Positions 7,123 through 26,651 are shown, counted from the first letter of the stretch. The stretch is 64,000 nucleotides of DNA from Bacteroidales bacterium (GCA_026984135.1 JALSSR010000095.1:1840-65839), one strand, 5' to 3'. Translations and numbers: made by a program. The notes: generated by a model not told the origin, from the sequence alone.

Positions 7123-10100
7123 ATGAAAAATTATTTAGAGAAAAAAACAAAAGGGTATTCAAAAGGAATACTGATGGGATTTATCTCCCTAATGATCCTC
7201 GGCTCAACAAACATCTTTGCCCAGGTATCATTTACGCAAACCCTCAACGCCGATTTTTACAAAGGGGTCTATAACGACCTTACTGTGGCATCGGATAGTG
7301 TTTATTTGCCATATCAGGCCGATGATGTGAACAACTGGCTGACAACCACTGTTTTACCTCAAACACTTGAAGGGCATAAGGCGGCCACATGGAACAACCG
7401 TTATGTTTATGTTGTTGGTGGGTTTAACGATATAAGCTACTCCAGTTCGGTTTACCGGGCATCATTGCAGTCAGGAGGAATAAGTGGCTGGACAACTTTA
7501 AATCCCCTGCCTGTCGGATTGAGGGATGCTGCTGTTGTTATCGGAACAAATACCCTTTATGTACTTGGCGGCCGTGACGGTTCCAACATTTTTGATGATA
7601 TTTACTATGCGGAAATAAATTCCGATGGTTCACTCGGTACGTGGCAAACGTCTTCTGTAACACTGCCCGCAACACTCTGGGGGCATACTGCCGTTTATTG
7701 CAATGGTTATATTTATGTTGCGGGAGGTTCAAATAATTCTTCAGCCACTTCTGCCCGTTCAAATGTATATTATGCAAAAGTTCTGGCCGACAACACCCTC
7801 TCGGCATTTAGTGCGGCCACTTCATTGCCGCAAACCCGAAACGGACATAGTATGGTGGTTTACGGGGATAAAATTTATGTCCTCGGGGGTTTTTCAAACG
7901 GTGGTACAAAAAGAAATACCGTTTATTATGCCACCTCGGGAAATAACGGGTCTCTTGGGTCGTGGTCATCTGCAACTGCCTTGCCGGTAACTATCAGCAA
8001 TCATTCTTCGGTTATTATCAACGGTTTGATAACAGTTCTGGCGGGTGAAAGCGGCGGTACCTTGAGCAACAAAGTTTATTATGCCGACATCAATACTTCC
8101 CCTTTAACCTGGAACCTTGCCACCAATGTTATGTACGACCGAACCAAAGACGGAGCGGCTTTTGCCGCCAACGGCTGGATTGGATATTGCGGAGGTGAGA
8201 ACCTTTCGGGAACACCTATTCATAATTCCCGTTATGCAACACTTAATATTACAACAGATTATGAAAAAAACGGCTTCTTTGTCTCAAATCCGTTTTTTGA
8301 ACTGGGTGCTGAAAGAGAGATTACAAAACTGACATTTTTAACCTCAACACCCTCCGGTTCAAACTCGGAAATTGCCTACCGGACGGCAGGAGATGACCTG
8401 TATTGGGGCAACTGGTCGGCGCTTACCTCAACCAGTCCCATTATTCTCGGTATTACCGATCATTATCTCCAATACAAAGTTGTATTTACCGGAGACGGTA
8501 CAGTAACTCCGACATTTGATGAAATGACACTCTGGACACCGGGCACGGAACTTTCGGGCAACCTGAACAACTTAACATTGATTGATGCAGCCAGCAGCCC
8601 TTATTGGGTAACGAGCGATGTTTATTTTACATCGGGTACACATACATTTGAAGCAGGCGTTGTCTGGAATTTCCTTCCTCAAACGGGTTTAACGGTGGGC
8701 CAGGCAAATATGATATGTAACGGTACATCGGGTAATCCGGTTCAGTTTGTCGGTTATACGGATGATGACGGACTATGGGACGGTATTTATTTTGATGCGA
8801 ACAGTGATAACGGTGTTTCGTCACAGTTCCATTATGTAGTTATCAAAAATGCCGGATACGGTGACAACAATGCCAACCTGTATTGCAATTCTTCCAACGA
8901 GCCATTCCTTGATCATTGTACCATAAAGAATGCGGACGGAAATGGTATTCGACTGAACAATGCACATATCAACATTGAGTATTCCACTATTGAATACAAC
9001 AGTGAAAACGGTTTATATCTCGAAAATTCCAATCCGACATTGGTCTCCTGTGATGTTGGGCATAATGGTGCTGCAGGTGTATATTTCACCTCAAATACAT
9101 CCGATCCGACATACAGTTCTACAACGATTCACGACAATCTTTACGGAATGCATTATCCATCACCCAATAATACAATTTATCCCCCAAATGGCGACCCCAC
9201 TGTAATTAACAATACGTACAACGGTATCGCAATAGACGGAGGGGATATTACTTCAACCAATAAAGTATGGAATTCTATAAAGTATGATTACATCTTATTA
9301 GGTACGGTCAGGATTAAGCAATGGATGTCTAATGTTAGACTGACCATTGAACCGGGCAATACAGTTAAATCGGTCAGTGGTGCCCAAATACAGATTGGCG
9401 CCCCTAATTATGGCGGAGAACTTTATGCAATCGGCACGGTCGACAGTCTTATCACTTTTACGTCCTACAACGGATCAAGTGGCGGTTGGAACGGTATATG
9501 GTTTACCGACCAAAGCGATAACTGGGGAGGTGTTTCCGTAATGGATTATTGCATTATCGAAAATGGCAGCGATTATAATATATTTTCCCAAAGTACCGCC
9601 CAACCTAATATCAGTAATAGTATTGTACGTAATGCAGTGGTTGACGGAATTAGAAACTCAAACTCCTCGCATACCGTTCAAAACTCGCAATTCCTTAACA
9701 ACGGAAGATACCCGTATTACTTTTTGGATCCGAATGCCAACCCGGTACATACGGGAAACACCTATACCGGAAATGGTATCAACCGGATTGCACTTGAAGG
9801 GGGAACCTACCCCTGGGACAGGTCCTTGACCAACGATAATGTCCCCTATCTTGTATTGAACGATATTGTGATTGGTAAGTGGGGTGATCATTCGAGGCTG
9901 ACCATTGATCCTGGCGTAATTCTTGAGTTTGAATCAGGGAAAAAGCTGCAACTTGGCTATATCAATTGTGGTGGTGATCTGTGGGCCGAAGGTACTGCAG
10001 GTAATCCAATTACTTTCAGGCCATCTAACGGCTTGGAGGGAGGCTGGGAAGGTATTTACTTCACTGACTATAACGACAACTGGGGAGGTACCTCTTCAAT

Positions 10101-12270
10101 GAAATACTGCATTGTTGAAAAAGCCAACATCTATAATATCTCCTGCGAAAGTTCCGGCCAACCGAATATGGAAAATTGTACGATAAGGAATTCTGCAAAT
10201 GACGGCCTGAAGCTCTATAAATCGGACCCTCCGATTACCAACTGTCTTTTTCAGAACAACGGCGCATACCCAATCAATTATACCGACTGGACCTGTAATC
10301 CGCTTCTTACGGGAAATACCTATACCGGAAATAATCCTGATTACATTGCACTTTCGGGAGGGACATACGATGCCGACAGGACCATTTATAATGACGGCGT
10401 TCCCTACCTGATACTGGACGATATTGTGATGGGTAAGTGGGGTAATAATTCGAGGCTGACCATTGAACCCGGTGTAACACTTGCCTTTGTATCAGGGAAA
10501 AAACTGCAACTTGGCTTTATCAATCATGGTGGTGAACTGTGGGCCGAAGGCAATGCAGACAGCATAATCACATTTAAGCCGTATAATGATTCCATTGGTG
10601 GTTGGGAAGGTATTTACTTCAATAACTATAACGATAACTGGGGAGGTGCCTCTTCAATGAAATACTGCATTGTTGAAAAAGCCAATCTCTATAATATCTA
10701 TTGTGAAAGTTCCGGTCAGCCAAATATGGAAAATTGTACGATAAGAAATGCTGCAAATGACGGCTTAAAACTCTATAATTCGACTATTGGAATAATCAAA
10801 AATTCAACATTTTCCAACAATGGCGGGAATGGAATTTACATTGACGGATCAAGTAATCCCGTAATTGGAAATGACCCTGCTTTTACAAATAACCTTTTTG
10901 GCAACGGACTTTATGAAGTTTATAACAATACAACCAATAATATTGATGCACGTTATAATTATTGGGGGGCAGCCGATTCGGCTATGATCCATTCAAAGAT
11001 CTACGACTATTATGACAACACTTCCAAAGGGATCGTCATTTTCGAAGACTTTGCCCAAATACCTTCAGTAGGCGGAACTACAACTTTATTAAGCGGTAAT
11101 GTATGGTATAATAATGCTTCTTCCTCTCCCATGGAAAATGCCCTGATGGAGATTTTTGATTTTGGCGGAACTCCAATTTCCAGCACCAACACCAGTTCTT
11201 CCGGTCATTATTCATTCGGTTCCATTACTTCTGGAAATTATACAATGGACATTACGCCCGAAGATAGCTGGGGCGGTGTAAATTCAACGGATGCTTTGCT
11301 GATACTTAACCATTTTGCACATATAGATACACTCAAAGGAATGGAACTGGCTGCTTCGGATGTTAATCACAGCCAGACTGTTAATGGTACGGATGCACTG
11401 TTCGTGATGAAGCGCTATACGGGAATGATATCTTCCTTCCCTTCAGGTGACTGGTTGTACAATACCGAGAACCTGACAATAAATGGAAATCAGGTCGTAA
11501 ACGATTTTGCAATGCTTTGTTTTGGCGATGTGAATTCATCTTATGTACCGGCAAAAAAAGACGGAGAAAATGTTTCGCTTGTTTATGAAGGATCTCGGAT
11601 AATCCAGTCATTTACTGATTTTGATTTAACAATTTCAGTTAAGGATATGATAGAAATGGGAGCTGTTTCACTGGGGTTAACCTATCCGGAAGAATTTATG
11701 GAAATAAACGGTGCCGAGCTGTTAAATACATCCGGTAATGCGATTTTTACAGCTGATAATGGATTGTTCAGGATTGCCTGGGCGGACCTTAATAGTGTGA
11801 ATTACGAAGCCGGGGACGAAATGCTTGTCGTGCATTGTACAGCGAAAGATCTGAGTCTTATGCAGGAGCCGATTTTTGTTGGGCTTTATGGAGAAAGTGA
11901 ATTTGCCGATCCGACTGCACAGGTTATCAATAATGTAACGCTTGTTGTTCCCGAATTGACAACTCTGGCGGTTGGAATAAACAATCCCGCCGAGGAAGGA
12001 TTATGGCTGAGTGAAAACTATCCCAATCCTTTCACTCATTCAACGACAATCCGTTATCAAATTCCTGAATTCGGCAATGTGACCTTAAAAGTATTTGACA
12101 TAACAGGCGCGATTATCACCGAATTGGTCAACAGTCCGCAGAAAAAAGGTGAATATGCCGTCGAATTCAATTCTGAGGGACTGGAGCCGGGAATCTATTT
12201 CTATAAACTGGAATTCAGCAACTCGGAAAATCACAAAAGTTTGGTAAATAAAATGAGTGTAACACGTTAA
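7123..12270 (+). CDS. giant secreted surface protein: Kelch beta-propeller + repeated right-handed beta-helix modules + CarboxypepD_reg-like + dockerin-like + cohesin-like + T9SS C-terminal sorting domain
   Basis: 1715 aa with a signal peptide (LMILGSTNIFAQ). Kelch-like repeats (YVVGG, YVLGG, YVAGG, YVLGG). Beta-helix repeats (NxxxGIxL). Dockerin-like GGVNSTDALLILNHF...DVNHSQTVNGTDALFVMKRY. T9SS CTD NYPNPFTHSTTIRYQIPEFGNVTLKVFDITG...GIYFYKLEF. Confidence 0.85.
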   Translation: MKNYLEKKTKGYSKGILMGFISLMILGSTNIFAQVSFTQTLNADFYKGVYNDLTVASDSVYLPYQADDVNNWLTTTVLPQTLEGHKAATWNNRYVYVVGGFNDISYSSSVYRASLQSGGISGWTTLNPLPVGLRDAAVVIGTNTLYVLGGRDGSNIFDDIYYAEINSDGSLGTWQTSSVTLPATLWGHTAVYCNGYIYVAGGSNNSSATSARSNVYYAKVLADNTLSAFSAATSLPQTRNGHSMVVYGDKIYVLGGFSNGGTKRNTVYYATSGNNGSLGSWSSATALPVTISNHSSVIINGLITVLAGESGGTLSNKVYYADINTSPLTWNLATNVMYDRTKDGAAFAANGWIGYCGGENLSGTPIHNSRYATLNITTDYEKNGFFVSNPFFELGAEREITKLTFLTSTPSGSNSEIAYRTAGDDLYWGNWSALTSTSPIILGITDHYLQYKVVFTGDGTVTPTFDEMTLWTPGTELSGNLNNLTLIDAASSPYWVTSDVYFTSGTHTFEAGVVWNFLPQTGLTVGQANMICNGTSGNPVQFVGYTDDDGLWDGIYFDANSDNGVSSQFHYVVIKNAGYGDNNANLYCNSSNEPFLDHCTIKNADGNGIRLNNAHINIEYSTIEYNSENGLYLENSNPTLVSCDVGHNGAAGVYFTSNTSDPTYSSTTIHDNLYGMHYPSPNNTIYPPNGDPTVINNTYNGIAIDGGDITSTNKVWNSIKYDYILLGTVRIKQWMSNVRLTIEPGNTVKSVSGAQIQIGAPNYGGELYAIGTVDSLITFTSYNGSSGGWNGIWFTDQSDNWGGVSVMDYCIIENGSDYNIFSQSTAQPNISNSIVRNAVVDGIRNSNSSHTVQNSQFLNNGRYPYYFLDPNANPVHTGNTYTGNGINRIALEGGTYPWDRSLTNDNVPYLVLNDIVIGKWGDHSRLTIDPGVILEFESGKKLQLGYINCGGDLWAEGTAGNPITFRPSNGLEGGWEGIYFTDYNDNWGGTSSMKYCIVEKANIYNISCESSGQPNMENCTIRNSANDGLKLYKSDPPITNCLFQNNGAYPINYTDWTCNPLLTGNTYTGNNPDYIALSGGTYDADRTIYNDGVPYLILDDIVMGKWGNNSRLTIEPGVTLAFVSGKKLQLGFINHGGELWAEGNADSIITFKPYNDSIGGWEGIYFNNYNDNWGGASSMKYCIVEKANLYNIYCESSGQPNMENCTIRNAANDGLKLYNSTIGIIKNSTFSNNGGNGIYIDGSSNPVIGNDPAFTNNLFGNGLYEVYNNTTNNIDARYNYWGAADSAMIHSKIYDYYDNTSKGIVIFEDFAQIPSVGGTTTLLSGNVWYNNASSSPMENALMEIFDFGGTPISSTNTSSSGHYSFGSITSGNYTMDITPEDSWGGVNSTDALLILNHFAHIDTLKGMELAASDVNHSQTVNGTDALFVMKRYTGMISSFPSGDWLYNTENLTINGNQVVNDFAMLCFGDVNSSYVPAKKDGENVSLVYEGSRIIQSFTDFDLTISVKDMIEMGAVSLGLTYPEEFMEINGAELLNTSGNAIFTADNGLFRIAWADLNSVNYEAGDEMLVVHCTAKDLSLMQEPIFVGLYGESEFADPTAQVINNVTLVVPELTTLAVGINNPAEEGLWLSENYPNPFTHSTTIRYQIPEFGNVTLKVFDITGAIITELVNSPQKKGEYAVEFNSEGLEPGIYFYKLEFSNSENHKSLVNKMSVTR
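9208..10790 (+). repeat. three tandem ~181-186-aa modules inside the 7123 gene (copies start ~9208, 9751, 10309)
   Basis: Copies 2 and 3 share long identical nucleotide runs, e.g. tggggaggt.cctcttcaatgaaatactgcattgttgaaaaagccaa. Protein repeat: GNTYTGN...RLTI(D/E)PGV...GGWEGIYF..YNDNWGG.SSMKYCIVEKAN. Confidence 0.8.
12013..12267 (+). other. T9SS (Por) type-A C-terminal sorting domain of the 7123 gene product
   Basis: Last ~85 aa match the usual NYPNPF...V.L.V(F/Y)D..G......G.Y.Y.L pattern. Confidence 0.8.
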
Positions 12271-12281: not shown

Positions 12282-15200
12282 ATGAAAACGAAATTTAAAA
12301 TATTCATTTCGGTGCTTTTCATAATTACCTGGCCGGTTTTATTGCAAAGTCAAACGATAAACACCACAGCCGGGTCGCCTTCGGAGTGCCCCGGGGAAAT
12401 TGTGGTTCCTGTAACGGTGACTAATTGCAGCGGCGTTGGAGCCATTTCCCTGACCCTTCAATACGATACGGTAGTCCTTACTTATTTGAATTATGAAAAC
12501 GTTCATACGGACTTAACATCAGGATTACTTGTTGTGAACCGGATCGGTAACAAGGTAATAATAAGTTGGGCTTCGACCACAGCTGCCAATATAGGTAGCG
12601 GAACCCTGATGGACATCCGTTTTTCGGGGGTTACAGGAAGCAGCAGCCTGACGTGGGACACACAAACACCGGGTAATTGTGAATACAGCGACTTAAACGG
12701 AAATATTCTTCCTTCTTCTTATACAAACGGTACGGCAACTGTTTATCAGGCACCGGAGATAATTGATTCTCCCGGTGATATTACTGCATTTGTGGGAGAT
12801 GATATCAGCTTTAGCGTGAATGCCGTAGCCGAAAATATAAGCAGATTATGGTACAAAAGTACGGATGGTGGATCAACCTGGGTTCCAACAGGCACAACCT
12901 CAGCTACAATTCATATTAATAATGTAACATTGGATATGAACGGATTTATGTACCGTTGTGAGATTAGCGGAACCTGCGGCCCTGTTGCTACATCCGATGC
13001 GGCAACACTAACCGTAATTCAACCGCTGATAACATCATTTGATATACAGAACGTTTGTCCGGGAAATATTACAATCCCAATACTGACATCCAATTTTACG
13101 GATGTAGCTTCCCTTTCCCTGGCATTTAGCTATGATACTTCAACTTTGACCTATTCGGGTTATCAGAATGTGAATTCATTATTACCCGGAAATTTTGTTT
13201 GTAATGAAGTTGGCGGGATGGTTTATATGTCATGGTCAACGACTTCACCCGTAACTTTCGGAACGGATACAACGCTTGTCGAAATCCGGTTTACCGGAAC
13301 AGCAGGAAGCAGCAACCTGACCTGGGATTTGACAACACCGGGTAATTGTGTTTACACCTATCTGAATGCGGATGAAATTGTTTCGGTATTTGAGAATAAT
13401 TCATTTACTATTTTTCAGGTACCGCAAATCAATATCCAACCTGTTGATAAACTGGTACCGGAAAATACCGGAACTAACTTTAGCGTGACAGCAGTAGCTT
13501 CGGGAATTCATTATCAATGGCAAATCAGTACCGATGAGGGTGGATTGTGGACAGACCTGAGTAATGGAAGCCAATACAGTGGCGTTACAAATGCAACACT
13601 AAACATTTTCAATACATACCTTTCGATGAGCGGTTATTTGTATAGATGTGTTGTGAGTGGATCTTGTACTCCCGATGCCATTTCCAATCCTGCAGAGTTG
13701 ACAGTTCTGCCAAAGATAACAGCTATAGCAGGAAACGTTTCCGACTGTCCGGGATCCATAATCGTTCCTATAGATGTAACCCATTTTATAGATGTTGCAG
13801 CCTTTTCCTTAACACTAAACTTTGATCAGACTATTTTAACGTTTGATAATTACCAATCGTTAAACAGCGCCTTGTCAGGTGGAGGTTTTGCTTTGAATGC
13901 AGTTGATGGAAAAGTTTACATGACCTGGACATCTACTACTCCGGCAACGATTGGTGACGATTTGCTATTGGAGTTGATTTTTACCGGAGTTTCAGGAAGC
14001 AGTACGCTTGCCTGGAATAATACTGATGAAGGTGCCTGTGAGTTCAGCGACATTGACGGGAACATTATTTTTGATAATTATGTTAACGGTAATGTAATTG
14101 TCTATCAACCACCCGTGATAACCGGCGATCCTGTAAATCAAACGGCTCCCGAAGGAACAAGCACCACATTTACGGTTTCGGCTTCCGGAACAGGCTTGAT
14201 CTATCAGTGGCAGGAAAGCATTGATAATGGGAGTAATTGGGTAGACCTGACAAACACCGGCCCTTATTCGGGGACAAATACTCCCACATTGCAAATCAGT
14301 CTCGTTGGACAAACAATGGATGATTATCAATACAGGTGCAGGGTGTCGGGCACATGTTCGCCACCGGCTTTTTCAGGTGCTGCAATATTACATGTGACAC
14401 CTCCCATAATAATTACTTCTGCCGGAGATATTACAAATTCCTGTACGGGAAATATTACCGTTCCGATAACCGTAAGTAATTGCAATAATGTTGGGGCCAT
14501 TTCCCTGGTTCTGAATTATGATAATACAAAACTAACTTTTGAGGGATACCAGTCGCCGAACAGCGAGTTAAACGGAGGGATGCTAATTGTAAATGCGACA
14601 GCTACACAGGTTATTCTCAGTTGGGTTTCTACAGATCCGGCAGACATAGGTTTTGGAACATTGATAGAATACAATTTCAAGGCCGATGCCGGTATTTCGA
14701 CAACACTTACCTGGGATACGCAAACACCGGGTAATTGTGAATACAGCGACCCTTTTGGAAATATATTTGCCACGGCATTTAATACCGGTGATATATCCAT
14801 TAATGCCAATGCTATAATAGTAGATGCGGGAAATGACGAGTCTATTACACCCGGAGGTTCGGTTCAACTTAATGGTTCCGTAACAGGAGGCACACCACCT
14901 TATATCATTCAATGGACACCAACAACCTGGCTGTCAGACCCGAACATCTTGAATCCCATTGCTGATCCGCCTTCTACAACAACATATACTTTGACAATAA
15001 CTGATGATGTTGGATGTACAGGCTCGGACAAAATGACCGTAAATGTTTCAACAGCAGGCATTGATCTTCATTTGAAAGCTTTTCTTGAAGGACCATTCAG
15101 CGGAACAGAGATGGGTACAGCATTGAACAGTAATAATATGATTCCTTTAAATCATCCCTATTCAGGGTCGCCATGGTATTATGGAGGTTCGGAATATGTA

Positions 15201-15731
15201 ACATCAATTCCCAATACGGATGTTGTTGACTGGGTGTTGGTTGAATTGCGCCAAACAAACGGACCGGCCTCAACGGCGACGAGCGGAAAAAGAATTGCAA
15301 GGCAGGCAGGATTTATCCTGAAAAACGGGAATATTGTTAAAACCGATGGTTCGGGTATGTTGCATTTTGATGTAACAATTACTCAAAACCTTTATGTAGT
15401 TGTCTGGCACCGAAACCATTTGGCAATTATGTCTTCCGGGCCTTTATCAAATGTTGGAGATACTTATTCCTGGGACTTCACCACAGGTTCCGGTCAGGCA
15501 TACGGAACAGATGCACAGAAAAACCTGGGTGGCGTTTACGGTATGTATGCAGGCGACGGTGATGCCAACGGAAAAGTCGAAACGGCTGACAAAAGTAATG
15601 TCTGGAGCGTACAGGTTGGTCGAACCGGTTATAAATCAGGTGACTTTGATATGAATAGTCAGGTGATGAATCAGGATAAAAATGAATTATGGGTACCCAA
15701 TGTTGGTAAAAATTCACAGGTGCCCGATTAA
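12282..15731 (+). CDS. scaffoldin-like secreted protein: (cohesin-like - Ig-like)x3 - cohesin-like - small beta domain - shared C-terminal dockerin-like module
   Basis: 1149 aa with a signal peptide. Four ~130-aa modules carry CPG.I.VP..V.....V.A.SL.L.YD...LT...Y......(approx aa 25-155, 246-378, 473-607, 701-835). They alternate with ~90-aa Ig-like modules (..YQWQ.S.D.G..W.DL...YSG....TL.I......YRC.VSG.C). Confidence 0.8.
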   Translation: MKTKFKIFISVLFIITWPVLLQSQTINTTAGSPSECPGEIVVPVTVTNCSGVGAISLTLQYDTVVLTYLNYENVHTDLTSGLLVVNRIGNKVIISWASTTAANIGSGTLMDIRFSGVTGSSSLTWDTQTPGNCEYSDLNGNILPSSYTNGTATVYQAPEIIDSPGDITAFVGDDISFSVNAVAENISRLWYKSTDGGSTWVPTGTTSATIHINNVTLDMNGFMYRCEISGTCGPVATSDAATLTVIQPLITSFDIQNVCPGNITIPILTSNFTDVASLSLAFSYDTSTLTYSGYQNVNSLLPGNFVCNEVGGMVYMSWSTTSPVTFGTDTTLVEIRFTGTAGSSNLTWDLTTPGNCVYTYLNADEIVSVFENNSFTIFQVPQINIQPVDKLVPENTGTNFSVTAVASGIHYQWQISTDEGGLWTDLSNGSQYSGVTNATLNIFNTYLSMSGYLYRCVVSGSCTPDAISNPAELTVLPKITAIAGNVSDCPGSIIVPIDVTHFIDVAAFSLTLNFDQTILTFDNYQSLNSALSGGGFALNAVDGKVYMTWTSTTPATIGDDLLLELIFTGVSGSSTLAWNNTDEGACEFSDIDGNIIFDNYVNGNVIVYQPPVITGDPVNQTAPEGTSTTFTVSASGTGLIYQWQESIDNGSNWVDLTNTGPYSGTNTPTLQISLVGQTMDDYQYRCRVSGTCSPPAFSGAAILHVTPPIIITSAGDITNSCTGNITVPITVSNCNNVGAISLVLNYDNTKLTFEGYQSPNSELNGGMLIVNATATQVILSWVSTDPADIGFGTLIEYNFKADAGISTTLTWDTQTPGNCEYSDPFGNIFATAFNTGDISINANAIIVDAGNDESITPGGSVQLNGSVTGGTPPYIIQWTPTTWLSDPNILNPIADPPSTTTYTLTITDDVGCTGSDKMTVNVSTAGIDLHLKAFLEGPFSGTEMGTALNSNNMIPLNHPYSGSPWYYGGSEYVTSIPNTDVVDWVLVELRQTNGPASTATSGKRIARQAGFILKNGNIVKTDGSGMLHFDVTITQNLYVVVWHRNHLAIMSSGPLSNVGDTYSWDFTTGSGQAYGTDAQKNLGGVYGMYAGDGDANGKVETADKSNVWSVQVGRTGYKSGDFDMNSQVMNQDKNELWVPNVGKNSQVPD
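15060..15728 (+). other. shared C-terminal module, copy 1 (223 aa, ends ...GKNSQVPD)
   Basis: IDLHLKAFLEGPFSG.EM...VDWVLVELR...HRNHLAIMS...GDGDANGKVETADKSNVW...GDFDMNSQVMNQDKNELW...QVPD. Alignable along its full length with copies at 17769, 21083 and 25977. Confidence 0.85.
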
Positions 15732-15926
15732 AATAAAGCCGGGCAGGGCTTTTTCCCTGTGACGGCCGGACGTTCTTTATACCGAAAGAAATCAGGTTTG
15801 CAACTTTATTGGTTGATTTCTTTCGAGTATAACTGGTTCTAAGAAGGTTTGTTTTTGCAAACATGTCAAGAACCAGTATACATCTTCGCAAAACCGGACT
15901 TGACATCCGGAATAATATCCGAATTA

Positions 15927-15958: not shown

Positions 15959-15959
15959 A

Positions 15960-18490: not shown

Positions 18491-21400
18491 ATGACAAAGT
18501 ATCTTTTATTCGTGTTTCTACTTTCGATAAACAATCTTTTCGCGCAATTCCCACCCGATACCATCTGGGAGCCGCAAGCACCTGCCGCCTTGCCGATGCC
18601 GGCCTATTTGCAGGCAGTCCGGGATACCGCCCGCAATATTGATATTACGCGTATCAGCGATACGCTTGCTTTTGGTGTACCGCCGGGCGCGGGAGCCTTG
18701 ATGCCGCAATATGCGAAAATCCAATCGTGGAACGCCGATATGTCCAAAATCCTTGTGGGCTATGTGCATATCCTTAACGCCGATGATTACACCATTTACA
18801 AAAATATCGCAAACGCCTATCAGGGAGGATATTTCAACGATGGCCGGTGGTCAAATACCGATCCCGACATACGGTATTTTTGTTGGGGGGATAATTTTTT
18901 GAAAATAAATATTGAAACTGAAGAAATTGATACGTTACAAAACTTTCCCAATTATGTTGTTACAATTGGCCCCTACGAAGGCAATATTTCGGCAGATGAC
19001 AAATATGTCGTTATTACGAACGATACGGCCATTCAGGGCTTTAACGTCGGGAACAGGGCTTCGCTTTACGATATTGAACTTGATACCGTAGTGGCAAGCA
19101 GGCATTTTCCCGGCTGGGGCTTCGACTGGGCATCCATAACCCCTTCAGGTGATTATATCGCAGTCTCAAATTATGAAACCGATAAAATAGAATTATATGA
19201 CCTTGATTTCAATTTTGTCAAGGTTTTGCTGAACAATACCGAACACGCCGATTTTGCCGTTGATGCCAACGGTGATGAGGTAATCGTGCAGGTAATTCCG
19301 CTATCAATGACAAGGTTGTCCGATAATCATTTTACAGATTTGATAACCGATGCGACATTGTGCGGCTGGCCCCACGAAAACCCCAGTATTGCCGGGCATG
19401 TTTCGGGTAGGAATTTTAATCTCCCGGGATGGGCTTATGTTTCGGCACAAATAAATGAATGCGGCAACGGGAACGGATTTTATTACGACACGGAAATATT
19501 TGCCGTAAAATTAGACGGAAGCGGTACGATACGCCACTTCGGACATGCCCGGTCATCTTTTTCGTCATACGACAGTTATGCAAAAGCAAGCGTCAGCCCC
19601 GACGGCACAAAAATGATTTTCAGTTCCGATTGGAATTTATATCCCAATCCCGATAATACCGTTTATGCTTATGTCTCGGAATTTCACAAAAGTCAATCCC
19701 ACTATGTTTCAACAAGCGGCAATAATGCAAATCCCGGATCAGAAGCCCATCCTTGGCTGACAGTGCAATACGGCCTTGACCATATTTTTTCGGGCGATAC
19801 CTTGATAATCATGGCAGGGGTTTACAATGAAAAAGTGATTGTTCCGGTTTCAGGTGTTTTAATTAAAAACTATCCAAATCAAAATGCCATCCTTGACGGC
19901 ACGGGACTGACCTATTCCGATGCAATTATGGAAATAACCGATCAATCCGATATTACCATCCAAGGGCTCGAAATCGCCAATAATGTGCAACTCGATGCAC
20001 AGGGGATTTTGATTTCGGGAAATTGCCAAAACATTACAATAAAGAACAATAAAATACACGACATCTATTTTTCATCCGACCCAAATGCTCCCGTTAATGA
20101 AAACACAAATAGTCAGCCCCTGATAGTTTACGGAACGCAAACAACGGCTATCTCAGGCTTGCTGATTACCGGAAACGAAATTTACAACTGCCGTCCGGGG
20201 TTTAGCGAGGCATTGTCAATTGATGGGAATGTGGACGGTTTTGATATTAGCAACAATCTGATCCATGACATAACCAACATCGGGATAGTTGCTGCAGGGC
20301 ATTACCAGGTATGCCCCGACCCTTTGCTTGACCAACCTCGAAACGGTGTCATTAAAAACAATCAAACTTATAATTGTCGTTCGCCATACGCAGCTTCGGG
20401 CGGCATTTATGTTGACGGTGCAAAAGATATAGTAATCGAAAATAATACTACTTATCAAAACGATTATGGTATTGAAGTTGGATGCGAAATTACCGGTAAA
20501 TCGGCATCGGGGATTATCGTTAAAAACAACATGATATACAATAACCGGATTACCGGTATTGCTTTCGGTGGTTTTGATTATCCGGCAGGTTCGGGAAAAA
20601 TTGAATCCTGTACTTTAAACAATAATACCCTTTTTCAAAACGATTCCATTAGTGATTACAATGGGGAAATGCTGATTACCTATACCGAAAATTGCAATAT
20701 TTTTAATAATATTTTCAGTACGACAAATCAGGACATAGCTTTTTATCTTGATATTGCTCCGGTCAACCTTTTTTTGGATTACAACCTTTATTTTTGCCCG
20801 GGGGGAAATATTTCTCTGGAGTTTAGTTGGAACGGAACAACCTATATGGGGCTTTCATATTTCCGGAACGGAACGGGGCAAGCTGCACATTCCATTTTCG
20901 GTGACCCGCAATTTGTTTCGGCTCTTTTGCCGACTCCCGACCTTCATTTACAAAACACATCCCAAGCTGTAGATAATGGTGATCCTGCTTATGTTCCCGC
21001 AACTGGCGAAACGGATATTGACGGGGAAAACCGAATTGTTAATTTCATAGTTGAAATAGGTGCCGATGAATTGACCGGAATATTGCTCGACCTGAAAGTT
21101 TTTCTTGAAGGACCTTTTAACGGAACGGAAATGAACCCCTCGTCAGGCTTGGAATCCTTTCCGTTAGCCCAACCGTACAATGTTGCCCCTTGGAATTATC
21201 AGGGGACTGAATCGGTAGTATCAATACCCAGTGGAACGGTGGATTGGGTATTGATTGAATTGCGCGATACAACCGAGGCTTCATTGGCAACCCCTGAAAC
21301 CGTAATTGCGAGACAAGCTGCATTATTGATGAATGATGGGAAAATTGTTGATACGGCAGGTACAAACGTACTGACGTTCATCTCAAAATCCGTATCGAAC

Positions 21401-21748
21401 AACCTGTTCGTGGTAATACGGCACAGAAACCATCTCGCCATTATGTCGGCAAATCCGGTAACCGTATCAGGCGGCATTTATTCATACGATTTCACTACGG
21501 CAATAACACAGGTTTACAATGGAGGTGCAGGGTATAAAGAGATAGCAACGGGCGTTTACGGAATGGTGGGCGGCGATGCCAATGCCGACGGCACTATTGA
21601 CGCAGCCGACAAAACCCTCTGGGCAAACGATGCCGGTACCAAAGGCTACAAAGCCACCGACCACAATATGGACGTTCAGGTGGACAACCGGGACAAAAAC
21701 GGTACGTGGGCAGGGAACGGGGCATATTCGGGGCAGGTGCCCCAATGA
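18491..21748 (+). CDS. secreted protein: TolB/PD40-like beta-propeller + right-handed beta-helix (pectin-lyase fold) + shared C-terminal module
   Basis: Start moved to MTKYLLFVFLLSINNLFAQ. Propeller-like strands (SADDKYVVITND, TPSGDYIAVSN, VSPDGTKMIFSSDWN). Beta-helix repeats (ITIKNNKIHD, ISNNLIHD, IENNTTYQN, VKNNMIYNN). Confidence 0.8.
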   Translation: MTKYLLFVFLLSINNLFAQFPPDTIWEPQAPAALPMPAYLQAVRDTARNIDITRISDTLAFGVPPGAGALMPQYAKIQSWNADMSKILVGYVHILNADDYTIYKNIANAYQGGYFNDGRWSNTDPDIRYFCWGDNFLKINIETEEIDTLQNFPNYVVTIGPYEGNISADDKYVVITNDTAIQGFNVGNRASLYDIELDTVVASRHFPGWGFDWASITPSGDYIAVSNYETDKIELYDLDFNFVKVLLNNTEHADFAVDANGDEVIVQVIPLSMTRLSDNHFTDLITDATLCGWPHENPSIAGHVSGRNFNLPGWAYVSAQINECGNGNGFYYDTEIFAVKLDGSGTIRHFGHARSSFSSYDSYAKASVSPDGTKMIFSSDWNLYPNPDNTVYAYVSEFHKSQSHYVSTSGNNANPGSEAHPWLTVQYGLDHIFSGDTLIIMAGVYNEKVIVPVSGVLIKNYPNQNAILDGTGLTYSDAIMEITDQSDITIQGLEIANNVQLDAQGILISGNCQNITIKNNKIHDIYFSSDPNAPVNENTNSQPLIVYGTQTTAISGLLITGNEIYNCRPGFSEALSIDGNVDGFDISNNLIHDITNIGIVAAGHYQVCPDPLLDQPRNGVIKNNQTYNCRSPYAASGGIYVDGAKDIVIENNTTYQNDYGIEVGCEITGKSASGIIVKNNMIYNNRITGIAFGGFDYPAGSGKIESCTLNNNTLFQNDSISDYNGEMLITYTENCNIFNNIFSTTNQDIAFYLDIAPVNLFLDYNLYFCPGGNISLEFSWNGTTYMGLSYFRNGTGQAAHSIFGDPQFVSALLPTPDLHLQNTSQAVDNGDPAYVPATGETDIDGENRIVNFIVEIGADELTGILLDLKVFLEGPFNGTEMNPSSGLESFPLAQPYNVAPWNYQGTESVVSIPSGTVDWVLIELRDTTEASLATPETVIARQAALLMNDGKIVDTAGTNVLTFISKSVSNNLFVVIRHRNHLAIMSANPVTVSGGIYSYDFTTAITQVYNGGAGYKEIATGVYGMVGGDANADGTIDAADKTLWANDAGTKGYKATDHNMDVQVDNRDKNGTWAGNGAYSGQVPQ
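21083..21745 (+). other. shared C-terminal module, copy 3 (221 aa, ends ...YSGQVPQ)
   Basis: LLDLKVFLEGPFNG.EM...VDWVLIELR...HRNHLAIMS...GDANADGTIDAADKTLW...DHNMDVQVDNRDKNGTW...QVPQ. Confidence 0.85.
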
Positions 21749-21858
21749 TATAAATAAACGTTGCGTCGCTGCGCCGCTGCGTGACTGCTATTAGTCTCAG
21801 TCTCATCTGCTTCAGTAGCAGATATAAATAAACGTTGCGTCGCTGCGCCGCCGCGTGA
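21747..21858 (+). repeat. two copies of a 38-nt GC-rich element (GATATAAATAAACGTTGCGTCGCTGCGCCGC(T/C)GCGTGA), 74-nt period
   Basis: Copies at 21747-21784 and 21821-21858. The core is the same as in the 26665-26883 tandem array. Confidence 0.8.
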
Positions 21859-21896
21859 GAAATCAATCGTTCTTTAAACATCTTCGCAGATGATTG

Positions 21897-21934: not shown

Positions 21935-22341
21935 GGTTCTTATCAGGTTTGCCCCGACCCTCTGCTTGACCAACCGTGAAGCGGTGTCATAGAAAACAAT
22001 ACTGCTTATCAAAACGATTCGATCAATGATTTCAAAGGTGAAATTCTGATAAGCTATACAAAACATTACACTGTTTTTAATAATATTTTCAGTACGACAA
22101 ATTAGGACATAGCCTTTTATCTCGATGTTTCTCCTGTAAACCTCTCTTTGAAATGTTCGGCGGCGATGGGAATGCAGATGGAAACATCACCGGTTATGAT
22201 AAAGATATCATCTGGAAACCGGCAGCCGGTACAAAAGGATATTTAAATGCCGATTTCAACCTGAAAGATCAGGTTGAAAACAAGGATAAAAATGATGTCT
22301 GGACGGATAACCTGAATGTTCCCGAGCAGGTTCCTAAATAA
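21935..22341 (+). pseudogene. decayed paralog of the 18491 gene (mosaic of its 3' half with large deletions; last 62 codons still open, ending EQVPK)
   Basis: Nucleotide stretches match 20306-20370, ~20440-20470, ~20650-20780 and ~21555-21748 of the upstream gene. There is an in-frame TAG (acaaattaggac versus acaaatcaggac). The 22153-22341 ORF keeps GDGNADGNITGYDK...DFNLKDQVENKDKNDVW...QVPK. Confidence 0.75.
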
Positions 22342-22575
22342 AATACTGTCGGTTTGTTATGAAAAATCATTTTTTTTGCCTCTTGTAATCCTCAGAGAAA
22401 CAGTGGATTGTGAATTTTGCTACCTTTTGAAACCGTCAATATAACCTTTTGCATACCCGTAATATTTTATTTACGCCTTTTGTGAATGTATTTTTGCCTG
22501 TGATGATTTTTTTAGCTAAAGATGGAAAATGCAAACAATGAAAAAAATAGGTATATGAACTTAAATTTAAAAACA

Positions 22576-23319
22576 ATGAAAAGGACAAATTTACTTTTTT
22601 CGGCTGCTATCGTCATTTTATTCATGCTTTTGGGTGGATGTTCAAAAGATGATGATACAACAAATGTTTCACCACAAAAAGATCCTCCCGTTTATGCGGG
22701 TAAGACCGTTACACCGCCGGACGCACTTATACAATCTTCGGATCCCGGTGCTCAGGAAGCCGCAATGTATATTAGTATGGCAAACAGCTTTGCAAATATG
22801 GCCGGTGGTTATATGACACCTCCCGGAAAATCATCCGGCTTTAAATCAACTAACGGTGACGGGCCTCCCTGGGTATATTCGTGGGATGTCAATGATGAAT
22901 CCGGGACCTATACTATTACCCTGACAATCAATGAAGATTCGGAAGGAAGCGATTGGAATATGAAAATAACAGGTGTTGTGGATGGCAACACTTTTACAAA
23001 CTTCACCTATATAAGCGGATGGCAATCGTCTGATGGAAAGGCCGGTAATTTTACTATATATGATTGGGATACGCAAGATATTGCTTTTACAATGTCGTGG
23101 ACAACAGACGATAACAATGTTTATACTTTGACTGTTGAATTTCCCGAAGATTCCAAAATAGTAATCACTTCAAATCCTGACAATTCCGGTACCATTGAAT
23201 TTTATGAATGGACAGGCAATGATTTCGGTCTTTCTTTCAAGGCTGTTTGGGATACGGCCGGTCATGGTGAGTACTGGGAATATGAGAATGGTGAGGTAAC
23301 CGAACATGGAACTTGGTAA
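22576..23319 (+). CDS. hypothetical lipoprotein
   Basis: Start placed at MKRTNLLFSAAIVILFMLLGGCSKDDD (signal peptide plus lipobox Cys). I recognise no family. Confidence 0.6.
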   Translation: MKRTNLLFSAAIVILFMLLGGCSKDDDTTNVSPQKDPPVYAGKTVTPPDALIQSSDPGAQEAAMYISMANSFANMAGGYMTPPGKSSGFKSTNGDGPPWVYSWDVNDESGTYTITLTINEDSEGSDWNMKITGVVDGNTFTNFTYISGWQSSDGKAGNFTIYDWDTQDIAFTMSWTTDDNNVYTLTVEFPEDSKIVITSNPDNSGTIEFYEWTGNDFGLSFKAVWDTAGHGEYWEYENGEVTEHGTW

Positions 23320-23339
23320 AAACTTTTAAAATATATAAT

Positions 23340-26300
23340 ATGAAGACACTAATCAATTTTTTAACGGTAATATTTTTCCTGACCATTGGCGTGTCGGGAT
23401 TAAATGCAGCAATAATCCACTCTATGCCCACAGGGGGCAACTGGCATGAAACAACCACCTGGCAGGAAGGCGTAGTCCCCGGCCCCACCGATGACGTGGT
23501 TATTGTCGGCGGAAGTACCGTCATTGTATATAATGCCGGACACGAATGCCACAACCTGACCCTTGAAAACAGCGCAGTATTGCAAAACCGCACCTATTCT
23601 AACCAGACACTATTGGTGCACGGAAACATATCCAATTACGGTTCGATTCAAAACAACACTTCTTATTCCTTAACAATTAACCTTGAAGGTAATTTCGATA
23701 ATTATGGTTTGGTAAACAATTTTCGTATCAAATTTACCGGAAACTCCGGGCACGAAGTATATTGCGATGCGGGAGATGTTTTTGAATGTACATATTTTGA
23801 AGCAGCCGACACTACGGGCAACTTGTCCCTTTTGAACAATATTGAATTTATCGGTACGGTCATTGACCTCAACGGCGTTGAAATCATAGGAAACACCTAT
23901 GCTGTCAAACTGTCCGGCGGCAGTTATGTTCAGGAAACCACCATCCATGATTTTACGGTTCAGGGAAAATTCATCTTTCGTTCTTCGGTATTTTTTGAAG
24001 GGGAAATCATTGTTCAGGACACTTTGTATAAACCTCTAAATAGCAATCTCAACCTCTATATTGACGGCAACCTGACAAACAATGGCGTAATCACAAAACC
24101 CAATTACAATTTCAACATTTACATCACCGGAAATATTGTGAACAACGGGCAATGGCTATGTAATGCCGTTCATTTTACGGGTACCGGATTGCAAAACGTT
24201 TCACTCGGAAGCGGAAAAGTCTTTGATTGTACTTATTGGATTGATGACGATAGCGGTTCTGCTATCGAAGCGCTTACGGATTTGTCGTTTACGGGTACGA
24301 ACATTGACCTGAACGGCAGCACCTTGACCTTGCCCAACGGCGGTCATACATTAAGTCTATCGGACGGATATATAAAAGATGGGGAAGTAAACTTTAATTA
24401 TGGGACATTGTTTATGGAAAACGATGCTTATATTGGTTCAGATTTATTGCTTGATAATGTTACTCTTGAAGGGGTTGTACAGTTGCGTAATAATGGTATC
24501 GAATTTTCGGGCGATATAATCAATAATGCCTTTTTGCGGAATTATGTTAATTCTAATATTTCTACCACCATCACCGGGAATATTACCAACAACGATACTA
24601 TTACCGATCCCAATTATAACTTTTACCTTAATGTAACCGGGAATATTACCAATAATGGGGTTTGGTCGATTAATCGAACAAATCTTACGGGCAGCGGCAA
24701 CCATACTATATCGCAAGGTGCAAGCGATATCTTTTCGGGAAATTATTTTAATGCGGCTGATACCACAGGAAATATTACCGCCCTTAGCGATATAACATTT
24801 GAAGGAACCAATATTGACCTTAACGGGCGTACATTGACAATGCCTGCCACAAAGGGTTCATTGCTCAGTCTGTCCGGTGGGTACATACAGGATGGGGAAG
24901 TAAATTTTAATTACGGGACATTGTTTATGGAAAACGATGCTTATATTGGTTCAGATTTATTGCTTGATAATGTTACTCTTGAAGGGGTTATCCAATTGCG
25001 TAATAATGGTATCGAATTTTCGGGCGAAATAATCAATAACGCCTTTTTGCGGAATTATGTTAATTCTAATGTTTCTACCACCATCACCGGAAATATTACC
25101 AACAACGACACTGTTACAGATCCAAACTATACTTTTACCCTCAATGTTACGGGAAATATTATCAATAATGGGATTTGGTCAATTTCTCACACCAACCTGA
25201 CAAGTACAGGACCACACACTTTATCATTGGGCAGCGGAAAATTGTTTTCGGGAAATTATTTCGAAGCCGAAGCAGGGACAGGGCTTATCACCGCCACCAA
25301 CGATATTGTTTTTCTCGGAACAGATGTTGACCTCAATGGCAGTGAAATGGCGATGCCCGATGAAAAACGGTTTTCCATACTCGGCACCTCAACGAATAAT
25401 GCTCATTTGGACGATGGCACCCTCAGCGGCGATAACTTTGAATTTGAAGGTAACGATTATTCCGATTTTGAGAATATCACATTCTCGGGTAATGTAACTT
25501 TATTCGGAAATGTAAGAGCGGTTGCCAGTGCCGATACTTTCCTTGGGGATGTGGATGTGCGCGATACGCTCAGCACCCGTACAAATACAAACTCCACGCT
25601 TACCATCGAAGGCAGGTTGATCAACAACGGCGCGATCATCAACAGCAATTACCATCTTTTTTTAAATTGCCACGGTCATCTTGTCAATAATGGTACATGG
25701 ACAAATTCCCAAACTACACTGAACGGCACAGAAGACCAGTTGATTTATCTTGTCTCGCAAAAACCTATTGATGGCTATGTCAGTTTTGACGCTGTTAATG
25801 GAAGTAACCCTTTTCAGTGGTACCTCGAAGACACCGTTTTGAACTCACTGGATTTTACGGGGGAAACATCCCAAATCCTGAACTGGCAAGTCCCTGTTTC
25901 CGATACTTATAGCGGTGATTTCTATTGCATCGGCAGCGGCGACACTTCAAGAACGATTGTTGTAAAAAGCGGTATTATCGTTGACCCGAAAATTTATTTG
26001 CAAGGACCTTACAACGGAACGGATATGAATACCGATTTATCTGATTTGGGTTTAATTCCATTAAACCAGCCGTTCAATATGTCGCCGTGGAATTATAATG
26101 GTAGCGAAACCGCACCCTCTATCCCTTCCGATGTGGTTGACTGGGTTTTGGTCGAACTCCGGCAAACTTCCGGCGGACCCGAAACCGCCACTTCCGGCAC
26201 CATTGTGATGCAGCGTGCATTATTGCTGAGGAATGACGGAGTAGCGATAGACCCCTATAATTTTACACCCGAATTAAAGTATGATATTCAGGTAACGGGT

Positions 26301-26651
26301 AATATTTATCTTGTTATCTGGCAACGGAATCACCTCGGCGTAATGTCGGCGGTTTCTATTGGCGGATTATCCCCTGCAAGATATGATTTTACAACCTCCG
26401 CTTCGCAAGCCTACGGAGGTACCGATGCCTTGATAGATCTGGGCAATGGTGTTTTCGGTATGATGGGGGGCGATGCCGATTACAGCCAGACTATCACAGA
26501 TCAGGATTTAGATGGCTTTTGGGAACCCAATGCGGGAAAACCCACGAACTATGACGCGGCAGATTTTACCCTTGACGGTCAGTTGGACAATAAAGACAAA
26601 GATCAAACATGGGCAAAAACCTTGGGAAAACAGACTCAGGTGCCCAACTAA
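23340..26651 (+). CDS. large secreted repetitive beta-helix-like protein with the shared C-terminal module
   Basis: Start moved to MKTLINFLTVIFFLTIGVSGLNA. About five ~170-aa modules (..GNITNNG.I..PNYNF.(L/I)(N/Y)(V/I)TGNI(T/V)NNG.W....). C-terminal module as in the three upstream genes. Confidence 0.8.
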   Translation: MKTLINFLTVIFFLTIGVSGLNAAIIHSMPTGGNWHETTTWQEGVVPGPTDDVVIVGGSTVIVYNAGHECHNLTLENSAVLQNRTYSNQTLLVHGNISNYGSIQNNTSYSLTINLEGNFDNYGLVNNFRIKFTGNSGHEVYCDAGDVFECTYFEAADTTGNLSLLNNIEFIGTVIDLNGVEIIGNTYAVKLSGGSYVQETTIHDFTVQGKFIFRSSVFFEGEIIVQDTLYKPLNSNLNLYIDGNLTNNGVITKPNYNFNIYITGNIVNNGQWLCNAVHFTGTGLQNVSLGSGKVFDCTYWIDDDSGSAIEALTDLSFTGTNIDLNGSTLTLPNGGHTLSLSDGYIKDGEVNFNYGTLFMENDAYIGSDLLLDNVTLEGVVQLRNNGIEFSGDIINNAFLRNYVNSNISTTITGNITNNDTITDPNYNFYLNVTGNITNNGVWSINRTNLTGSGNHTISQGASDIFSGNYFNAADTTGNITALSDITFEGTNIDLNGRTLTMPATKGSLLSLSGGYIQDGEVNFNYGTLFMENDAYIGSDLLLDNVTLEGVIQLRNNGIEFSGEIINNAFLRNYVNSNVSTTITGNITNNDTVTDPNYTFTLNVTGNIINNGIWSISHTNLTSTGPHTLSLGSGKLFSGNYFEAEAGTGLITATNDIVFLGTDVDLNGSEMAMPDEKRFSILGTSTNNAHLDDGTLSGDNFEFEGNDYSDFENITFSGNVTLFGNVRAVASADTFLGDVDVRDTLSTRTNTNSTLTIEGRLINNGAIINSNYHLFLNCHGHLVNNGTWTNSQTTLNGTEDQLIYLVSQKPIDGYVSFDAVNGSNPFQWYLEDTVLNSLDFTGETSQILNWQVPVSDTYSGDFYCIGSGDTSRTIVVKSGIIVDPKIYLQGPYNGTDMNTDLSDLGLIPLNQPFNMSPWNYNGSETAPSIPSDVVDWVLVELRQTSGGPETATSGTIVMQRALLLRNDGVAIDPYNFTPELKYDIQVTGNIYLVIWQRNHLGVMSAVSIGGLSPARYDFTTSASQAYGGTDALIDLGNGVFGMMGGDADYSQTITDQDLDGFWEPNAGKPTNYDAADFTLDGQLDNKDKDQTWAKTLGKQTQVPN
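24378..25403 (+). repeat. 513-bp (171-aa) intragenic tandem duplication, first ~240 nt of the copies about 95% identical by eye
   Basis: gatggggaagtaaa(c/t)tttaatta(t/c)gggacattgtttatggaaaacgatgcttatattggttcagatttattgcttgataatgttactcttgaaggggtt occurs at both 24378 and 24891. Confidence 0.85.
25977..26648 (+). other. shared C-terminal module, copy 4 (224 aa, ends ...GKQTQVPN)
   Basis: IVDPKIYLQGPYNG.DM...VDWVLVELR...QRNHLGVMS...GDADYSQTITDQD...DFTLDGQLDNKDKDQTW...QVPN. Confidence 0.8.

Follow-up and report, generated by a model that had tools for sequence, protein, structure and literature searches.

Clostridial and ruminococcal cellulosomes are organised around a non-catalytic scaffold with tandem cohesins, as in Clostridium thermocellum, where the X-dockerin II of CipA docks on SdbA or OlpB, and in Ruminococcus flavefaciens, where the X-dockerin of ScaB docks on ScaE. 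A scaffold of this kind is encoded in a 64,000-nucleotide stretch of an uncultured Bacteroidales bacterium (GCA_026984135.1, JALSSR010000095.1:1840-65839), hereafter the window, as part of a locus with five genes, p1 to p5. Protein p1 (A) carries a dockerin, a cohesin and a type IX secretion system (T9SS) C-terminal domain (CTD), p2 (B) is the scaffold with four cohesins, and p2 to p5 end in a common C-terminal module (CTM). We consider the chances about even that this locus encodes a non-cellulolytic cohesin-dockerin surface assembly coupled to type IX secretion, with the CTM as a non-covalent tether.

Similar to cellulosomes, the cargo proteins of the locus share a C-terminal, putatively docking module, the scaffold ends in a beta-sandwich followed by a dockerin-like module, and a neighbouring protein has a single cohesin beside a cell-anchoring motif. 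Over evolution, the C-terminal end of the scaffold has switched, in both systems, between anchoring directly and carrying a (here putative) docking module. However, the host is a diderm member of Bacteroidales, the anchor is a T9SS type A CTD instead of an S-layer homology domain or a sortase signal, and the cargo consists of a C10 protease and beta-helix proteins, with no glycoside hydrolases or carbohydrate-binding modules (CBMs). The CTM, with ~225 aa, also differs from cellulosomal docking modules in scoring below the Pfam dockerin threshold and in its shorter loop-to-loop spacing (28 residues). Among the features that define a cellulosome system, the multi-cohesin scaffoldin is present (p2), whereas dockerin-bearing carbohydrate-active enzymes (CAZymes) and a cellulose-binding CBM on the scaffoldin are absent. 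In the absence of any CAZyme or CBM, the term cellulosome-like therefore fits the architecture only.

A cellulosome-like complex with a scaffoldin bearing a T9SS CTD was already proposed for metagenome-assembled genomes (MAGs) of Ca. Stygibacter (Cloacimonadota) (Williams et al. 2021, PMC8542988). These MAGs likewise belong to the Fibrobacteres-Chlorobi-Bacteroidetes (FCB) group and encode a scaffoldin-like protein that has tandem cohesins and a T9SS-type CTD for surface attachment, together with dockerin-bearing peptidases and hydrolases, and that complex was also inferred from sequence only (PMC8542988). The two systems differ in that Ca. Stygibacter has recognisable dockerins on the cargo and CBMs on the scaffold, whereas in the present locus most of the cargo carries the unannotated CTM, the scaffold may have a CTM in place of the CTD, and a conserved partner protein contains a dockerin-cohesin-CTD cassette. 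An earlier note on this DNA, made by a model from the sequence, had stated that a T9SS-anchored scaffold is no established paradigm; this is correct with regard to experiments, and as an idea it had been put forward for Ca. Stygibacter.

Cohesins and dockerins also occur on non-cellulolytic proteins, such as the cohesin 2xdh of Archaeoglobus fulgidus and the glycosidase complexes of Clostridium perfringens, and both modules can be present in one polypeptide. Unlike the proteins described here, those are small and are linked neither to a sorting domain of a secretion system nor to a large family of cargo paralogues. In rumen Bacteroidetes, dockerins were reported along with a few cohesins (PMC6487960). 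With respect to secretion, p1 and the product of the gene starting at 27051 resemble T9SS type A cargo of Porphyromonas gingivalis, such as the gingipains and the C10 protease PrtT, in having TIGR04183/PF18962 CTDs. As a C10 protease with an I69 prodomain, p3 shares the family type of PrtT; it differs in ending in a CTM instead of a T9SS CTD, and the CTM has no detectable similarity to CTDs. Literature searches found no description of the CTM, of the A-B pair, of the exchange of CTM and CTD, of such a system in Bacteroidales, or of a third class of CTD.

Modules of the A and B proteins

The C-terminal cassette of p1 begins with a CarboxypepD_reg/SdrD_B-like beta-sandwich (aa 1331-1378) and a Dockerin_1 module (PF00404, aa 1384-1431), which scores 30.3-31.6 bits against a cut-off of 22.9, reaches E 2e-7 when the tail alone is searched, and matches the PDB dockerins 8x39 and 3ul4_B. 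The module that follows is a divergent cohesin. It has no Pfam match, and it was recognised by structure comparison and profile searches. The top 36 Foldseek PDB matches of its AlphaFold2 model are all cohesins (E 2e-4 to 3e-2, TM-score 0.5-0.63), the model itself being of low confidence (predicted local distance difference test, pLDDT, 48.7) because the alignment was shallow, as the word-index search gave only seven close fragments. The first search round with a hidden Markov model (HMM) of the module and its orthologues detected P0298, a protein with a Pfam cohesin, at E 7e-18, the second round reached the p2 cohesins at 1e-18, and hhalign of the p1 module against the p2 cohesins gave E 9e-5 and a probability of 59%. 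In the alignment, the position of the p1 cohesin matches that of a Pfam cohesin in a protein of the related locus L051 (related loci are given by L numbers). The cassette closes with the T9SS type A CTD.

Full-length orthologues of p1 with 54-66% identity are present in L001, L002, L088, and L089. In about thirty (~30) related proteins the sandwich-dockerin dyad is followed by a constant stretch of ~265 aa that contains the cohesin and the CTD.

Protein p2 possesses four stretches matching Pfam Cohesin (81.6 bits, cut-off 24.1), with Ig_3 spacers between them, and its first cohesin directly matches the A. fulgidus cohesin 2xdh. The start of p2 lies 11 nt after the stop of p1, and a strong terminator-like hairpin with a 12-bp stem is located after p2 (15926-15954), in keeping with a bicistronic arrangement of p1 and p2. 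An exact look-up in public assemblies retrieved no record of p2.

These results bear out most of what the earlier note had read from the modules. It had described p1 as a protein with dockerin-like and cohesin-like modules and a T9SS CTD, and the dockerin (Dockerin_1) and the CTD (TIGR04183/PF18962) are above their cut-offs, with the cohesin found by Foldseek, HMM and hhalign. The scaffoldin-like layout of p2, with four cohesins (Pfam Cohesin) and immunoglobulin-like (Ig) spacers (Ig_3), was found as described, and so were the C10 peptidase with two CUB domains of p3 (Pfam) and the C-terminal module shared by p2-p5 (~225-233 aa, 44-48% identity), with p3-p5 lacking a T9SS CTD. The HMM searches that it had suggested (PF00963, PF00404, TIGR04183) recovered the p2 cohesins, the p1 dockerin, and the p1 CTD, and left the p1 cohesin and the CTM tails below threshold.

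Some further details of p1-like proteins were observed. A 300-nt block of p1 is repeated 558 nt apart with 76% identity (9787-10644). In the stretch that follows the classical dockerin dyad, the last residues read GD[VT][ND]xSY[VQ]P, in p1 at aa ~1470-1478 and also at the C-termini of the proteins encoded at 1557-8273 of L012 and 11132-9576 of L103. This end and the end of the CTM, ..SQVP[DE], may represent a common terminal motif. A few cargo proteins terminate in the classical dyad without a T9SS CTD.

Conservation of the A-B pair and exchange of the scaffold end

The A-B pair, consisting of a p1-like and a p2-like gene, is conserved. It was found on more than 15 contigs, with 4, 3 or 1 cohesins in its different versions (the window, L001, L002, L051, L082/L101, L085, and L088-L100). 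The A protein contains a cargo part, the sandwich, Dockerin_1, the cohesin, and the T9SS CTD. The B protein, encoded directly 3' of A, contains a signal peptide, cohesin-Ig repeats, a PKD-like module and a C-terminal module. In L051, B has three cohesins and the dockerin, cohesin, and CTD of A are all Pfam-verified; in L082/L101, B has one cohesin.

Orthologous B scaffolds end either in a CTM or in a Pfam-verified T9SS CTD. The B proteins of L089 (CTM) and L088 (Por_Secre_tail) share 61% identity as far as residue ~941 and diverge beyond it, and their A partners align end to end. Likewise, p2-type cohesin proteins with complete C-termini have a CTM or a T9SS CTD at the end. This alternation on orthologous scaffolds is expected if the CTM is an anchoring device.

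CTM cargo clusters around scaffolds of the CTM type. In the window, L001, L002, and L051, the A-B pair has genes for CTM proteins on its flanks, and none were seen near A-B pairs whose B ends in a T9SS CTD. The general idea of the earlier note, a cohesin/dockerin-type surface system linked to the T9SS, is strengthened by the analysis.

Tandem paralogous A-B pairs were also found, three on the 47.5-kb contig Ga0118677_10001608 (L090/L094/L097) and two on Ga0073936_10002127 (L091/L092). Every scaffold in these tandem pairs terminates in a T9SS CTD.

The C-terminal module shared by p2 to p5

The CTM comprises the C-terminal ~225-233 aa common to p2-p5, with a pairwise identity of 44-48%. The HMM scan detected four full copies and one remnant in the window, and no others. 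Neither Pfam/NCBIfam nor hhalign could detect a T9SS CTD in p2-p5, and sequence searches of Pfam, NCBIfam and the PDB gave no match to the CTM. Searches against PDB with profiles of 4 and 120 sequences gave no significant match; the top-ranked matches of the 120-sequence profile, which are themselves non-significant, are dockerins. A divergent T9SS type A CTD was rejected at the sequence level as an explanation of the CTM (hhalign probability 0.3%).

An exhaustive profile search revealed at least 14,559 representative clusters (50% identity) of the CTM family at E<=1e-3, and 3,826 at E<=1e-30. The module is nearly always found at the extreme C-terminus, which is conserved as ...QVP[DE], of proteins of 230-3,200 aa with unrelated N-terminal parts. 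The GTDB genomes that contain the family, with numerous copies in each, are those of uncultured Bacteroidales and of some 'Chlorobiota' MAGs from anoxic habitats, and 31 out of 78 loci have at least two CTM genes.

AlphaFold2 modelled a confident beta-sandwich core, in which P42, W48, D65, W66, R72, and H125-R-N-H128 are each conserved in at least 91% of the sequences, and only the first helix of the tail, with pLDDT below 50. Dockerins are defined by two duplicated Ca2+ loops of the type D-x-[DN]-x-[DN]-G-x-[IV]-x-x-x-D, both with a helix after them. The tail contains two canonical 12-residue Ca2+ loops, with K-x-x-W after each, conserved to 87-100% among 123 CTMs; conservation of D176, D187, D204, and D215 is 98%, 99%, 100%, and 100%, respectively. 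Foldseek gave nothing significant for the CTM. The best weak matches include transthyretin-like sandwiches and the X-dockerin chains 4wi0_B, 4u3s_B, and 2b59_B, the latter at a non-significant level (E 0.2-0.3, probability 0.33-0.47, TM-score 0.37-0.42). Dockerin_1 is the Pfam family matched by most CTM homologues (10 out of 120 at E<=1, best E 2.8e-5). The CTM, as a transthyretin-like beta-sandwich with two Ca2+ loops in a dockerin-like twofold symmetry, therefore appears to have the layout of an X module plus dockerin.

In ~10% of the open reading frames (ORFs) of the loci the CTM is internal, with a Fib_succ_major domain after it. Proteins with a CTM and one or more Fib_succ_major (FISUMP) domains are encoded in L001 (11203-13980) and by ORFs in L006, L011, L024, L029, L031, L043, L052, L060, L061, and L078. 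In L016, the CTM is followed by further domains and then by a T9SS type A CTD. As the CTM can be internal, and in one case precedes a T9SS CTD, it is no obligate cleaved terminal signal. A cleaved sorting signal, which the earlier note had named as a finding that would overturn its reading, is thereby made less likely.

Proteins of ~296 aa, added by the word-index search, that consist of a signal peptide, a conserved 45-aa motif (..LSWTLGEIATET..LTQGFQQP) and the CTM are abundant (P0024, P0033, P0040, P0112; L002 16450-17343; L020, L024, L025, L037, L047, and L049). The 45-aa motif occurs nowhere else within the loci. One gene for such a protein lies among housekeeping genes, ~10 kb from an SprA gene.

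Proposed mechanism and alternative explanations

In the proposed assembly, the T9SS would export A, which would then become attached to the cell surface, by analogy with Porphyromonas, where this happens to cargo with a type A CTD. B would serve as a non-catalytic scaffold whose four Ig-spaced cohesins could be engaged by the classical dockerin of A. The CTM may act as a Ca2+-dependent, non-covalent tether in place of the covalent anchor that the T9SS CTD would provide in orthologous scaffolds. By docking on a cohesin, it would keep its bearer at the surface; the membrane-proximal cohesin of A is the best candidate, possibly in addition to those of B. A lone membrane-proximal cohesin would correspond to the layout of anchoring scaffoldins in cellulosomes. 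As a result, A proteins would be clustered at the cell surface together with the C10 protease and the beta-helix proteins. The binding of the CTM to a cohesin is itself a tentative prediction, which we rate somewhat short of an even chance.

The earlier note had proposed a hierarchy in which the anchor cohesin receives the CTM of the scaffold and the scaffold cohesins receive the CTMs of the cargo. This hierarchy was not supported and is probably incomplete. The CTMs of the window are below the dockerin threshold, scaffold CTMs form no separate type, and p1 retains its cohesin where the scaffold lacks a CTM. Invariant in the pair are the classical dockerin of p1 and the cohesins of p2, which suggests a different or additional polarity; the predicted contact between this dockerin and these cohesins appears to be the most conserved one.

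Several observations weigh against the CTM as a cohesin-bound tether. The best CTM of the window reaches 8.7 bits (E 2.6) with the Pfam dockerin model, which is below threshold, the EF-hand tail has a pLDDT below 50 in AlphaFold2, and the likeness of the CTM to dockerins is non-significant both in Foldseek and in the PDB profile searches. A common origin of the CTM and the sandwich-dockerin dyad of p1 was not supported (hhalign probability 1.4%). A separate 'type II-like' class of scaffold CTMs was rejected, because the scaffold CTMs of L051 and P0046 fall among cargo CTMs in the neighbour-joining tree. The CTM sandwich is conserved beyond what is expected of a passive X module, which hints at another ligand. 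In addition, a cohesin is absent within 10 kb at most CTM loci, and A keeps its cohesin in lineages with a T9SS CTD on B and without a CTM gene in the vicinity; therefore, the conserved ligand of this cohesin need not be the CTM. Finally, CTM-only proteins have Sec signal peptides and no known signal for crossing the outer membrane.

A bolder version would answer this last point. The CTM might define a very large unrecognised class of surface-targeting modules, present in Bacteroidales and their FCB relatives and able to trade places with the T9SS CTD. Proteins with only a Sec signal and a CTM would dock, possibly already in the periplasm, on the cohesins of T9SS-CTD carriers such as p1, be exported as passengers ('hitch-hiking') and in this way reach the cell surface and remain there. 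We regard this as improbable.

A more serious competitor, although in our view still unlikely, is that the CTM works independently of cohesins, as a surface-targeting or retention domain that would represent a third kind of C-terminal sorting or anchoring device in the FCB group. Its ligand might be a conserved component of the envelope, such as an outer-membrane protein, a shuttle protein or a lipopolysaccharide glycan, or an export machine might recognise it, and the cohesins of p1 and p2 would then serve classical dockerins only. The replacement of the T9SS CTD by the CTM on orthologous scaffolds is in agreement with such a role, and so are the nearly constant extreme C-terminal position with the conserved QVP[DE] end and the distribution over unrelated cargo in at least 14,559 clusters, which resembles that of a sorting domain. 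The near-invariant polar core (D65, W66, R72, H125, R126, N127, and H128) suggests a conserved ligand, most CTM genes are distant from any cohesin, the A-B cohesin pair persists without the CTM, and CTM-only proteins would otherwise lack a route across the outer membrane. Nonetheless, the internal CTMs before Fib_succ_major domains (~10% of locus ORFs), the combination of a CTM with a T9SS type A CTD in L016, and the missing likeness to T9SS CTDs argue against a sorting device. The tail with its symmetric pair of dockerin-type Ca2+ loops points in the same direction, and the abundant ~296-aa proteins, which are barely more than a signal peptide and a CTM, would be odd for a pure export signal.

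The remaining alternatives concern the assembly as a whole. The proteins could be large secreted adhesins and a protease that form no higher-order assembly, and their cohesin-like, dockerin-like, and beta-sandwich modules would then be spacers, folds stabilised by Ca2+ or binders for ligands from the environment. Beyond cellulosomes, cohesins and dockerins are common (Peer et al. 2009 as cited in PMC8542988, PMC6487960), often without a shown partner, and the locus has no CAZyme or CBM. However, the two-gene pair and the fixed cassette of X module, dockerin, cohesin and CTD, with its constant ~265-aa spacing, are kept across many lineages, recruitment is the only obvious role for a row of four cohesins on a non-catalytic protein, and the exchange of CTM and CTD indicates a function in localisation, so that we consider the absence of an assembly quite improbable. 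Least probable of all, to the point of being a distant prospect, is a homotypic lattice, in which the dockerin and cohesin of the A cassette would bind in trans, head to tail, between A molecules and B would cross-link the chains into an S-layer-like coat, instead of an enzyme scaffold, with the CTM cargo at its periphery. Such a lattice would fit the invariant X-dockerin-cohesin-T9SS CTD cassette, which also terminates multi-cohesin proteins of L106, L108, and L111, and the occurrence of up to three tandem A-B pairs on one contig. However, it leaves the CTM unexplained, and the p1 cohesin is divergent from the p2 cohesins, which suggests distinct specificities and not one promiscuous pair.

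Locus layout and regulatory genes

The genes of the region 3520-27995 are co-oriented on the + strand (Table 1). Pfam/NCBIfam scans could not detect any glycoside hydrolase, polysaccharide lyase, carbohydrate esterase or CBM family in p1-p5.

Table 1. Features of the locus; positions are counted from the first nucleotide of the window
Feature	Position	Strand	Composition and evidence
TPR-repeat sensor histidine kinase, LytS type	3520..5634	+	Pfam TPR, His_kinase PF06580, HATPase_c
Response regulator with LytTR DNA-binding domain	5715..6452	+	Pfam Response_reg, LytTR
LytTR-only protein, immediately 5' of p1	6572..7060	+	Pfam LytTR
p1 (A)	7123..12270	+	1715 aa; signal peptide, Kelch propeller, beta-helix repeats, C-terminal cassette; Pfam, NCBIfam
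p1 beta-sandwich (CarboxypepD_reg/SdrD_B-like) and type I dockerin dyad	11113..11415	+	aa 1331-1431
p1 divergent cohesin	11572..11997	+	aa ~1484-1625, ~140 aa; Foldseek, iterative HMM, hhalign
p1 T9SS type A CTD	12019..12267	+	aa 1633-1706; Por_Secre_tail PF18962 E 4e-12 on tail; TIGR04183 34.8 bits, cut-off 23
p2 (B)	12282..15731	+	signal peptide, four cohesins with Ig spacers, PKD-like module, CTM; Pfam
p2 cohesins	12351-12755, 13020-13424, 13710-14114, 14406-14810	+	Pfam Cohesin PF00963
CTM copy 1, on p2	15030..15728	+	alignment, HMM match
p3	15993..18437	+	Inhibitor_I69 prodomain, Peptidase_C10, two CUB, CTM (17733-18434); Pfam, alignment
p4	18491..21748	+	N-terminal part, beta-helix-like region, CTM (21050-21745); weak NCBIfam matches para_beta_helix, LIC10774
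Decayed partial duplicate of the p4 3' end	21940..22341	+	beta-helix fragments, last 65 aa of a CTM
Predicted lipoprotein, 265 aa, LLGGC lipobox	22522..23319	+	ORF translation
p5	23340..26651	+	repetitive beta-helix-like protein, CTM (25950-26648); alignment
39-nt tandem repeat array, then terminator-like hairpin (26919-26946)	26655..26946	+	directly after p5 stop

The adjacent LytS-type kinase and LytTR regulators probably govern the expression of the locus, as suggested by their domains and position. The Pfam domains agree with the TPR/LytS kinase, LytTR regulator, and second LytTR protein that the earlier note had placed upstream of p1, and their adjacency to CTM or p1-like genes is conserved across related loci. 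Homologues of the TPR kinase adjoin CTM genes in L043 and L068. Homologues of the response regulator (REC-LytTR) with 34-56% identity are encoded near or directly upstream of genes for CTM proteins, mostly p5-like, in L004, L043, L058, L032, L028, and L056. An orthologue of the LytTR-only protein is found in the same place upstream of the p1 orthologues in L001, L002, L085, and L089.

The cargo parts of p4 and p5 show weak beta-helix signals, and nothing matched them in the PDB sequence searches. The combination of a beta-propeller and a beta-helix that had been suggested for p4 is thus retained, weakly, for the beta-helix, and the propeller was not confirmed. Protein p5 contains a recent internal duplication (24354-25166), in which a 300-nt block is repeated 513 nt apart with 90% identity. 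The decayed sixth member of the family that had been noted after p4 is indeed a decayed copy, with internal deletions and stop codons; it is a duplicate of the 3' end of p4, however, and no independent family member. Its three-frame translation matches the CTM HMM at E 2e-22, and its DNA repeats are 81-83% identical to the 3' part of p4. The 265-aa predicted lipoprotein has no Pfam or NCBIfam match; its gene ends 20 nt before p5, which suggests co-transcription with p5.

The GC-rich 39-nt repeat after p5 (unit ~TGCGTCGCTGCGCCGCCGCGTGAGCAAAAAAGTAATCGT) is present in 5.6 copies at 26655-26925. Two related copies, together with a shared 103-nt flank (87% identity), are located after the stop of p4 (21762-21859). 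Altogether 8 matches of the repeat were counted, each on the + strand, where chance would give 0. The repeat was not found in any of 115 related loci and has no Rfam match.

Directly after the locus, a gene at 27051-27995 encodes a PCMD-like protein with a T9SS type A CTD (TIGR04183/PF18962). PCMD-like homologues are encoded in L078, and one of them (457 aa) is fused to a CTM in place of the CTD, a further case of alternation between the two. From 28 to 64 kb, the genes of the window are ordinary housekeeping ones, plus those for a GH2 mannosidase and a second TPR kinase/LuxR pair, and no T9SS components were found among them. The second pair, a TPR, PAS, and HATPase kinase and a REC-LuxR (GerE) regulator (33806-37155), is located downstream of a gene for a TMEM260-like O-mannosyltransferase (30715-33783). 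The region 40001-42000 is low in GC (29%, ~40% elsewhere) and contains a 381-aa ORF on the - strand (40533-41678) without a Pfam match. The Rfam scan of the window gave no match.

Implications

If the predicted contacts are real, cohesin-dockerin assembly would reach the diderm Bacteroidales, with the T9SS as the anchor and with proteases and adhesin-like proteins, not cellulases, as the cargo. The unannotated family of ~225-aa CTMs, with at least 14,559 clusters, gains a concrete functional hypothesis. The locus also bears on a question of secretion, since many large Sec-dependent proteins of these bacteria have no known outer-membrane export signal. The organisms are abundant in anoxic sediments, springs, and digesters, and the proteins on their surface are of relevance for the breakdown of particulate organic matter.

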